DNA from: a virus
Reading direction: 5' to 3' (one strand)
IMG/VR virus record: IMGVR_UViG_3300002038_000006
Span: 154,100 to 218,099 of that record
Length of the DNA: 64,000 nt
The notes beneath the pieces were generated by a model. That model ran no database searches and was not told the origin of the DNA. It was given only the letters and a program-made list of their open reading frames with translations. Both the position numbers and the translations under genes were made by a program. Positions 8,229 through 9,766 of the stretch are shown here, piece by piece (within the stretch, counting starts at the first letter, position 1; the number at the start of each line of letters is the position of its first letter).

Positions 8229-9766
8229 CATTCCCATTCAAAATGGACCATATCTTCATCCTCTATTGAGGAGCCTACCGTTTGGGGTTTCCCCTACTCT
8301 ACTCACTTTAATCACTTCCGTGACCAACTGATTATTACACTACAGTTGTCATTAGTTCACACATTGGCGAATGTAGTTTTCGATGGCCTCTGAACACATC
8401 CCCTATCCGTAGACTTAGGGACTTCGCTGCGTCGGTTGTACCTCCACTAAACGTTTTTACCGTTCTACCCTCTTCCATTACTGGGGATAGTGTCGTAGTG
8501 TGTTTCCACCTACGAGTGGTAGTTTAGTAGATTATGGGTATTTTCCCGCAATTAGGTAGGTTTATCTTAGACGCATTACTGCGTCTGGGAGACCTATGTT
8601 GAAAATTTTAAACAATTGAGATATCGTATTTCGATAATTCTAATGATAACATTTTCCTAAGTCTTCTTCTATCTAAATCAAGATAGTTCAGTACTATGAG
8701 AGGAATTTTCTTACCGTTAGCCAATCTTAACTTGTCCCAATCCCTAGCCTTGCATTCTTCTAAAGCTTCATATCCACCGAACCTTTCCACAGGTTCGTAA
8801 TGTTGGATACCGTGGAACTCTATAAGAATTTCAAACTTGGGTAGAAAGAAATCGTATCTATATAACGACCCGTCGAATTTATATTCTCTTCTAAACTCAA
8901 TGCCATTTATATCTAAAATGTGAGCTATCTGTCTCTCACCGAGAGATTCTCTACATCTTGGACAACCCTGTTTCTGAGAAACATGTCGGTTGGGAATAGT
9001 TTTGAAAGGACCATGTTTTTTACAAACCACCGTTATTGGGGTTTTGTTATTAACATATTCGACTTTATCATAGTTGTATATATAGCCATGTACTTGCTGT
9101 GCGTCTTGTATAAACTCGCCTAGGGTCTTTTTAGTAGACTCCCTATGGCAAGTTGGACAACCAGAGCCATTTAAGTGAACTCTAGCTTTCTGATAGAAGT
9201 ATCCATGTTTTGGACATCCTAATGTGACAGCTTTTGTATACCCTTTAAAGCTAACATTACCATAGCAGTATTTATCGCCATGTACCAACTTAGCTTGTTC
9301 TAAAAAAGTACCCTCGTCCATTACGGATTCCGATTGGGCACACGCTGGACAATTGGTACCTAACTTATAGTGGTTATATGGCTTAACTTTGAAATCGCCA
9401 TGTTCCCTACAAGTTATGGTTACGGGAGTATCTACATTTCTGAAAATAACCTTATCGTAACTGTATCTATCTCCGTGTTGTTCCTTTGCTAGCTTAATAA
9501 AGTAATCCTTACTAAACTTACTGGAACAGCCTATACATCCCTTAGCTCCTCGCATTAGATAACATGGTTTAGTTGTATACTTACCATGACTAACGCAATG
9601 AACTACTATGGGTTTTTTAGAACCTAGATATTCGGACTCAGTAAAATCTAAAGAGTCTCCATACATTTCTTTCATTGTGTCGTAGAATTCTTTTTCTCTA
9701 CGTTTAAAACCTTTTAACATAATACATATCTCATGGATACTATTCACATAAGATATGTTGCCTTTT
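8229..9766 (-). mobile_element. Group I self-splicing intron in the vRNAP beta gene, carrying a homing endonuclease
   Basis: 5' exon ends GGGAGAU and pairs with intron GUCUCCC (8587-8593), giving the U.G splice pair. P AATTGCGGGAA, Q GACGCAGC, R GTTCAGAGGCCAT and S AAGATATGGTCC are present; P3 CCTACC/GGTAGG; terminal G at 8229. Splicing restores in-frame KQRGD|LPIRK. Confidence 0.92.
8608..9720 (-). CDS. Intron-encoded homing endonuclease: four CxxH...CxxC zinc-finger repeats plus a C-terminal PD-(D/E)XK/Vsr(DUF559)-like nuclease
   Basis: Repeats CVSHG/CREHG/CPKHG/CKKHG..CxxC; nuclease segment SLGE...YRYDF...LIEFHGIQHY. Start revised to MLKGFK at 9720, inside the intron. Confidence 0.8.
   Translation of the reverse strand: MLKGFKRREKEFYDTMKEMYGDSLDFTESEYLGSKKPIVVHCVSHGKYTTKPCYLMRGAKGCIGCSSKFSKDYFIKLAKEQHGDRYSYDKVIFRNVDTPVTITCREHGDFKVKPYNHYKLGTNCPACAQSESVMDEGTFLEQAKLVHGDKYCYGNVSFKGYTKAVTLGCPKHGYFYQKARVHLNGSGCPTCHRESTKKTLGEFIQDAQQVHGYIYNYDKVEYVNNKTPITVVCKKHGPFKTIPNRHVSQKQGCPRCRESLGERQIAHILDINGIEFRREYKFDGSLYRYDFFLPKFEILIEFHGIQHYEPVERFGGYEALEECKARDWDKLRLANGKKIPLIVLNYLDLDRRRLRKMLSLELSKYDISIV

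Follow-up and report, generated by a model that had tools for sequence, protein, structure and literature searches.

The window analysed here is a stretch of 64,000 nucleotides (nt) from the IMG/VR virus record IMGVR_UViG_3300002038_000006 (positions 154,100 to 218,099), a 218-kb genome with terminal repeats, and all coordinates below are positions in this window. On its minus strand, the gene for the beta subunit of a virion RNA polymerase (vRNAP) is interrupted by an element that is very probably a mobile group I intron, in a host that is very probably a marine jumbo phage. The open reading frame (ORF) of a putative homing endonuclease lies within the loop of the P1 helix of this intron. The locus is made up as follows, in the direction of transcription:

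9767-11176, minus strand: exon 1 of vRNAP beta, 470 codons ending in ..AKQRGD, matching phrog_3148 (RNA polymerase beta) with an E-value of 1.6e-109
9767-9773, minus strand: 5' strand of P1, exon bases GGGAGAU, with U 9767 as the splice-site U
8229-9766, minus strand: group I intron of 1538 nt, from its first base, A 9766, to its terminal G 8229 (Rfam RF00028)
8608-9720, minus strand: ORF of the putative homing endonuclease, 370 codons (coding 9720 to 8611) and a stop codon (8610-8608)
8587-8593, minus strand: internal guide GUCUCCC, the 3' strand of P1, directly 5' of P2; it forms P1 in the global minimum free energy (MFE) fold of the 1.2-kb 5' part
8229-8586, minus strand: ribozyme core from P2 (8586-8569) to the 3' end, placed by Rfam and alignment
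8218-8240, minus strand: predicted helix across the 3' splice site, in which intron bases 8240-8233 pair with exon-2 bases 8225-8218
5667-8228, minus strand: exon 2 of vRNAP beta, starting LPIRKT.. and covering phrog_3148 profile positions 575-1420 (575 of 1424 at its start)

The last codon of exon 1 is GAT (9769-9767) and the first codon of exon 2 is CTC, beginning at 8228; past the GAT, the exon-1 frame continues for eight codons to a TAG at 9742-9740. The intron therefore splits vRNAP beta between RGD and LPIR, and joining the exons in frame restores RGD-LPIR, which is contiguous in intron-less homologues. For these homologues, the last 211 amino acids (aa) of exon 1 and the first 200 aa of exon 2 were searched by tblastn against 50,697 phage records, a collection that holds no near-identical DNA. 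The two matches abut at 38273/38272 in phage FLC9, at 92320/92321 in pPa_SNUABM_DT01 and at 90942/90941 in PCH45, and they likewise abut to the base in KpGz_1 and Eowyn. At the nucleotide level, the codons for the D before the junction and for the (L/V/M/I)P(I/L)RK motif after it are contiguous in these phages and in Vibrio phage BONAISHI.

The same intron was found at the same site in 17 related loci. A 20-nt motif of the ribozyme core retrieved 15 IMG/VR loci, all at the same vRNAP beta codon. A homologous ORF is present in eight of the 15, with 81% identity in L008 and about 30-53% in the others (tblastn), and is missing from the available stretch of six (L004, L006, L017, L013, L015 and L010); L011, which begins inside the intron, is left out of this count. 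In L010, an L016-like ORF is reduced to its two ends, about 100 nt at the 5' side and about 120 nt at the 3' side, by deletion of the approximately 930 nt between them, and L015 and L013 look like similar ORF remnants, whose origin from an endonuclease gene is presumed. The cultured Vibrio phages vB_pir03 and vB_VmeM-Yong have the same order of exon 1, a 362-aa ORF homologue (35-36% identity), a ribozyme of about 400 nt and exon 2. Their records annotate these pieces as separate coding sequences and leave the intron unannotated, and the word intron is absent from the genome paper of vB_pir03 (PMC7765460).

Rfam family RF00028 matches positions 8225-8619 on the minus strand with 53.1 bits against a gathering score of 50, which places the ribozyme core wholly 3' of the ORF, and the intron is the only one of this family in its own 218-kb genome. 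In an alignment of 16 sequences, compensatory changes are found in 60 of 88 consensus pairs. P1 consists of 7 bp, 9773-9767 with 8593-8587, with a U.G wobble at the splice site (U 9767, G 8593). In 15 loci, variation in the exon codons that precede the splice site is matched in the guide, giving the paired variants GGGGAU/GUCCCC, GUGGAU/GUCCAC, GCGGAU/GUCCGC, AGUGAU/GUCACU and GCGGAU/GUUCGC. Both elements were mapped in 13 IMG/VR loci, and in these the guide G precedes the core motif by 30-33 nt and stands directly 5' of the P2 hairpin; for L016 the guide site returned by the script was spurious, and the homologous guide GTCCACC lies at 33 nt. The introns of vB_pir03 and Yong are without P2, and there the guide lies 10 nt before the core motif. 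By eye, no canonical P10 between exon 2 and the bases 5' of the guide was seen.

The two strands of P1 are separated by a loop of 1173 nt with the ORF inside, in agreement with the first-pass annotation of this DNA, made from the sequence without database searches, which had put them about 1.17 kb apart. The comparative data fix the guide. It is found 3' of the ORF in every ORF-bearing locus and, whether or not a relative carries the ORF, directly 5' of P2, and the leader between the 5' splice site and the ORF contains no sequence that could pair with the exon to give the U.G wobble. Because the guide is always 3' of the ORF and none is usable in the leader, the placement of the ORF in the P1 loop stands. 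The loop from splice site to guide measures 32, 65 and 75 nt in the shortest ORF-less introns (L006, L004 and L017), 181-317 nt in three intermediates and 1165-1550 nt in the ORF-bearing introns. As a side observation, GAGAU at 9723-9727 on the minus strand, just upstream of the AUG of the ORF, matches the final five bases of the exon and might base-pair with the guide as a possible cryptic 5' splice site or P1 competitor; a 5-nt match of this kind is expected by chance.

At the other end of the intron, the helix across the 3' splice site joins intron positions -12 to -5 with exon-2 positions +4 to +11, and it is predicted at the same place in L001-L018. Its mean energy is -9.9 kcal/mol for cognate as opposed to -6.7 kcal/mol for non-cognate combinations (0 of 20000 permutations). 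The helix covaries with synonymous changes of both the Pro and the Ile codon; in the former, C, U or A at the third base goes with G, A or U in the intron.

How a loop of more than 1 kb is accommodated within the substrate helix of a ribozyme is suggested by three further structural features predicted in the RNA:

9724-9758, minus strand: leader hairpin between the 5' splice site and the ORF, found in local and global MFE folds and including TATG at 9750-9747
9702-9722, minus strand: 5' strand of the closing helix, including the start codon (9720-9718) and pairing with 8613-8594 in the global MFE fold
8594-8613, minus strand: 3' strand of the closing helix, including the stop codon and the 3' copy of the heptamer CAACATA (8601-8595) and abutting the guide

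In every ORF-bearing intron, the first 10 or so codons of the ORF are complementary to the last 10 or so codons together with a few bases past the stop. The mean pairing energy of the start and stop windows is -19.4 kcal/mol for cognate and -11.1 kcal/mol for non-cognate pairs, and none of 20,000 re-pairings reached the cognate mean; the only strong non-cognate pairs join this phage with its close relative L008. Compared with shuffled sequences, the z-scores of the pairing range from -1.1 to -4.9. In MFE folds from exon position -10 to P2 (1.2-1.6 kb), all nine ORF-bearing introns form P1 (6-8 bp) with an adjoining helix of 7-47 bp that joins the ORF ends. For this phage, its 3' strand (8613-8594) passes directly into the guide at 8593-8587, and the helix hides the AUG. 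The closing helix can thus be regarded as prolonging P1, the leader hairpin protruding on the 5' side. Eight of the nine introns with an ORF have a comparable predicted leader hairpin; the exception is Yong MS32, with a leader of 19 nt.

The complementarity of the ORF ends could also be a terminal inverted repeat of the endonuclease cassette at the DNA level, for example the trace of a movement, and not a functional RNA helix. We regard this as unlikely, although it is the alternative that best withstands the comparison with the data. As would be expected of such a repeat, sense and antisense strands give equal duplex energies, and G.U accounts for no more than 15 of the 219 pairs. Against it, the helix abuts P1 in all folds and is kept in L010, a dead cassette whose ORF interior is deleted and which still folds into P1 and the closing helix; L015 and L013 fold alike. 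Nor is any homing endonuclease mechanism known to require inverted repeats.

The protein encoded within this loop consists of two parts beyond its N-terminus:

8953-9597, minus strand: four zinc-finger units of the type C-x2-H...C-x2-C (aa 42-256), assigned to DUF723 from Pfam and motifs
8617-8952, minus strand: predicted Vsr-like (EDxHD) nuclease domain (aa 257-368), from the predicted structure compared with VIA-align

The ORF length of 370 codons and the four CxxH-x-CxxC repeats agree with the first-pass annotation. The units follow the pattern C-x2-H-x15/16-C-x2-C at aa 42-65, 104-127, 169-191 and 233-256, and all of their Cys and His residues are invariant in 25 aligned homologues. Pfam DUF723 (PF05265) matches in three stretches (E-value 7.1e-13, 48.7 bits as opposed to a cut-off of 20.9), and a weak match was obtained to DUF4379, described as a probable treble-clef zinc finger. 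The ORF is present in a single copy in its own genome. Homologues are numerous, with 661 at E-values up to 1e-5 in a search of 5.8 billion proteins and tblastn matches in 1035 phage records, often several per genome. The number of repeats, which the annotation had proposed to compare across homologues, varies from about 2 to 9 in the 120 best homologues, and the median length of those with 4 to 8 fingers is 379, 475, 521, 581 and 645 aa, respectively.

The AlphaFold2 model has a mean predicted local distance difference test (pLDDT) score of 84.7, the nuclease domain lying mostly at 87-97 with one 10-residue block at 72. In VIA-align comparisons with this predicted model, the top match is the catalytic domain of I-Bth0305I (3r3p_B, Z 11.7, root mean square deviation 2.7 Å over 96 of 98 residues), while Escherichia coli Vsr (1cw0_A) reaches Z 11.3 and the DUF559-type protein NGO0050 (3hrl_A), in fourth place, Z 9.4. 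These matches all cover residues 257-368, and Foldseek, on which this comparison does not rely, gives a probability of 1.00 for both 3r3p_B and 1cw0_A. The earlier description of a Vsr/DUF559-like nuclease is borne out by this predicted structure. When the family profile was searched against the PDB, only 3R3P was found (E-value 0.24), with the conserved E, D, E and D-x-x-K columns aligned; a single-sequence PDB search returned only tetraheme cytochromes, spurious matches caused by the Cys and His content, and an NCBIfam search of the ORF gave nothing useful. For the orthologue of vB_pir03, an HHpred match to 3R3P with a probability of 97.5% has been reported independently (PMC7765460).

Residues S259, E262, D290, F291, E301, G304, Q306 and H307 are invariant in the 25 homologues, and D327 and K330 are conserved in at least 90% of them. 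Judged from this alignment, the composite catalytic set of EDxHD enzymes, E262, D290, H307 and D327, is present in full. From spacing and motif comparison, H303 probably occupies the position of H64 in Vsr and N208 in I-Bth0305I. The designation as a PD-(D/E)XK endonuclease holds in part: the modelled fold would place the domain in that superfamily through the Vsr branch, at fold level only, and the canonical D...(D/E)-x-K signature is absent, because E301 is followed by F-H-G with no x-K and position 303 is H, N, D or Q among the homologues. The Vsr-like domain is the only nuclease-like domain found in the ORF. No Pfam family of the HNH type matches the ORF at E-values up to 0.1, the zinc-finger region not having been searched separately, and the label "HNH endonuclease" of phrog_559 looks like a mislabel. 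The protein may accordingly be described as a putative EDxHD (Vsr-like) homing endonuclease with a DUF723 finger array, for which cleavage and homing are suggested by analogy.

For the target site in this phage, the fused exons (9767-9780 and 8228-8215) read GGGGAGAT followed directly by CTCCCC. The reconstructed intron-less site thus contains a perfect 14-bp palindrome, GGGGAGATCTCCCC, whose centre lies one base off the insertion point and which would suit a dimeric enzyme. As a family feature, a palindromic target was rejected, since L014 has only a 10-bp version and the other alleles are palindromic at GATC alone.

The distribution of intron and ORF bears on whether the element is still mobile. 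The intron might have become fixed and vertically inherited in this lineage, its endonuclease being inactive or kept for another role, for example as an aid to RNA folding, and the ORF-less and ORF-deleted derivatives do show that the endonuclease gene is frequently lost. This explanation is nevertheless improbable, as the ORF of this phage is full-length with every family-invariant residue kept, is 81% identical to its L008 orthologue without stops, and belongs to an intron that is present in some relatives (vB_pir03 and Yong) and missing in others (BONAISHI), which argues for ongoing mobility. A mobile intron with an intact endonuclease gene thus remains the preferred reading.

The first-pass annotation had further read a direct repeat of CAACATA as suggestive of an insertion scar. 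Its two copies do flank the ORF, at 9760-9754 and 8601-8595, and L008 retains six of the seven nt, as would suit a target-site duplication produced by the entry of the ORF into the P1 loop. This origin is very unlikely, however. In 167 of 2000 shuffles (8%), leader and trailer have a word of at least 7 nt in common, and the seven more distant ORF-bearing introns share words of only 4-5 nt, which is chance level. Both copies are explained by RNA pairings. The 5' copy lies partly in the stem of the leader hairpin, and the 3' copy pairs with the start-codon region (AUG 9720-9718 with CAU 8598-8596). In L008, the 3' copy reads UAACAUA, a change from C to U that weakens the direct repeat and gives a better match to UAUGUUAA at the start, that is, in the direction that improves the pairing of the start region. 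The insertion of homing endonuclease genes is not known to generate target-site duplications.

It is hardly credible that the beta gene is split into two separately translated polypeptides with a free-standing endonuclease between them and the intron-like RNA as a relic: other jumbo-phage RNA polymerase subunits are split, the vB_pir03 and Yong records give separate coding sequences and in-frame ATG codons stand one and three codons before the 3' splice site, but ribozyme and P1 show extensive covariation, no stop codon ends exon 1 at the junction, the halves rebuild a contiguous conserved motif, no Shine-Dalgarno sequence precedes the in-frame ATGs, and the triplet before the 3' splice site, being UAG in vB_pir03 and Yong, is not conserved as a start.

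The locus is best accounted for by a group I intron with an endonuclease gene closed onto P1, and the following points weigh against this reading. The RF00028 score barely exceeds the threshold and reaches only 42.7 bits in a genome-wide run. The equal sense and antisense energies of the closing helix do not distinguish a role at the RNA level from an inverted repeat at the DNA level, and the AUG lies within this helix in only about five of the nine introns, for which reason hiding of the start codon was discarded as a universal feature. The identity of the zinc fingers is read from Cys/His patterns and Pfam labels, and the sequence link to 3R3P, with its E-value of 0.24, is weak on its own. 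For all members of the family, we infer splicing and cleavage from sequence and by analogy.

With these points in mind, the following course of events can be proposed. In the pre-mRNA, the last seven exon bases would pair with the guide 1173 nt downstream, the strands of P1 being brought together by pairing of the first 20 or so nt of the ORF with its last 20 or so nt. The closing helix would continue from the 3' strand of P1 and form a continuous stack with it, while the leader hairpin would occupy the 5' side of the junction. The downstream ribozyme core would then remove the intron by self-splicing and restore RGD-LPIR. Translation of the endonuclease could use unspliced or excised intron RNA after the helix has opened or, alternatively, a transcript starting inside the intron. 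The closing helix may cause translation of the endonuclease and splicing to exclude each other. If the enzyme acts as I-Bth0305I does, it would cut the intron-less allele next to the insertion site, and the intron would be copied into related phages during co-infection. Homing and competition between phages, both raised in the first-pass annotation as possible roles of the enzyme, are plausible. Two more specific proposals are put forward tentatively, and we would not call either of them probable. One is that the protein is a modular zinc-finger nuclease in which each unit of about 63 aa reads a fixed block of DNA; if true, the number of repeats (2-9) would set the target length and swaps of fingers would retarget the enzyme. 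The other, separate from it, is that the closing helix on P1 acts as a switch between translation and splicing.

A transcript starting inside the intron would need a promoter there, for which one lead was found. The sequence TATGTGAATA at 9741-9750 on the minus strand, a word of the form TATGTGA(A/T)TA, lies in the leader with its TATG 27 nt before the endonuclease AUG. An exact copy (49576-49585, plus strand) and a copy with one mismatch (45042-45051, plus strand) both lie in intergenic leaders, and of the nine ORF-bearing introns, five have a TATG at 22-27 nt upstream of the AUG. The same tetranucleotide serves the late promoters of PhiKZ, with transcription starting at its G (PMC4666361). 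Over-representation of the word was rejected, since with one mismatch allowed 7 matches stand against 7.4 expected. By analogy with PhiKZ, an internal late promoter at the TATG may be considered as a lead only.

Around the intron, the gene upstream of exon 1 (11484-13532, minus strand) is a beta-prime-like subunit with the catalytic motif ..ADFDGD.., and a 97-aa ORF lies between the two at 11189-11482. Further group I introns above the Rfam threshold were noted in or beside vRNAP beta in the related loci, at L004:2235-2526, 2574-2860 and 3804-4046, which makes three additional introns in L004, and at L015:2918-3239 and L002:432-838; Yong has one upstream of exon 1. Gaps in the tblastn matches at exon-2 aa 478-483 in L004, L010, L011 and L015 fit extra introns. 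Among marine jumbo phages, vRNAP beta looks like a hot spot for introns.

In these phages, the stages of the homing cycle are seen together, as empty site, intron with endonuclease gene, internally deleted gene and ORF-less intron. Each ingredient of the system is known: EDxHD enzymes, DUF723/CapR arrays, ORFs in P1 extensions and an intron endonuclease in a jumbo-phage vRNAP gene. Their combination, the insertion site and the ORF-closing helix were not found described in the open-access literature searched. The first-pass annotation had referred to a precedent for an intron endonuclease in a jumbo-phage RNA polymerase gene, and the precedent is real. PhiPA3, a nucleus-forming jumbo phage, encodes gp210 within a group I intron of its vRNAP beta gene, and the expected target of this enzyme, as here, is the intron-less allele in relatives (PMC11620839). 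Gp210 differs in being an HNH nickase, at about nt 3215 of PhiKZ gp178 and after two conserved Asp residues, whereas the enzyme described here is of the EDxHD type and inserted at codon 470. Competition between phages has been shown for gp210 (PMC11620839). Intron nucleases of the vRNAP gene have been studied in one Pseudomonas phage, to which the present loci add a family of marine jumbo phages; cultured Vibrio phages whose records leave the intron unannotated belong to this family.

An endonuclease gene in a P1 extension is also known from the S1389 nuclear introns of myxomycetes, which differ in residing in eukaryotic ribosomal DNA and encoding His-Cys box enzymes (PMC8395846). In two phage or bacterial examples, the ORF lies in P5 or P6.1 (PMC3239194, PMC2248736). 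The closing helix offers a simple, testable explanation for the tolerance of an insert above 1 kb within the substrate helix of a ribozyme. Translation of I-TevI from the td intron of phage T4 is said, in work of Gibb and Edgell from 2010, to be delayed by RNA structure and an internal late promoter. Predicted structure around the start and a possible internal late promoter are shared with the present intron, where the start is predicted to pair with the 3' end of the ORF itself, beside P1.

Variable-number tandem fingers with presumed modular DNA binding are likewise described for T5orf172 endonucleases with CapR/DUF723/DUF4397 arrays (bioRxiv 10.1101/2023.03.23.533998). There, the nuclease domain is T5orf172, in contrast to the Vsr-like domain here, and the genes are a dataset of T5orf172 nuclease genes that were not picked for intron location (bioRxiv 10.1101/2023.03.23.533998). 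The closest counterpart of the nuclease itself is I-Bth0305I, from the group I intron in recA of Bacillus phage 0305phi8-36, the prototype of the EDxHD (Vsr-like) homing endonucleases, a named family whose name denotes the scattered catalytic residues (PMC3239194, PDB 3R3P). Both enzymes are intron-encoded in a large phage, and they share the C-terminal catalytic fold, predicted in the present case, and the composite catalytic set. The two systems differ in DNA-binding region, with two NUMOD/helix-turn-helix motifs in I-Bth0305I and four DUF723 zinc fingers here, as well as in ORF position (P5 as opposed to P1) and host gene (recA as opposed to vRNAP beta). A stretch of 35 nt in the 3' core region of the 0305phi8-36 recA intron (161042-161076) is 94% identical to window positions 8242-8276, so that the two EDxHD-bearing introns may belong to one ribozyme subgroup. 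The authors of the I-Bth0305I study suggested that its nuclease domain could serve as the catalytic part of artificial gene-targeting nucleases of the zinc-finger or TAL type (PMC3239194), an idea echoed by the natural fusion of a Vsr-type nuclease with a finger array of variable length in over 1000 phage records.

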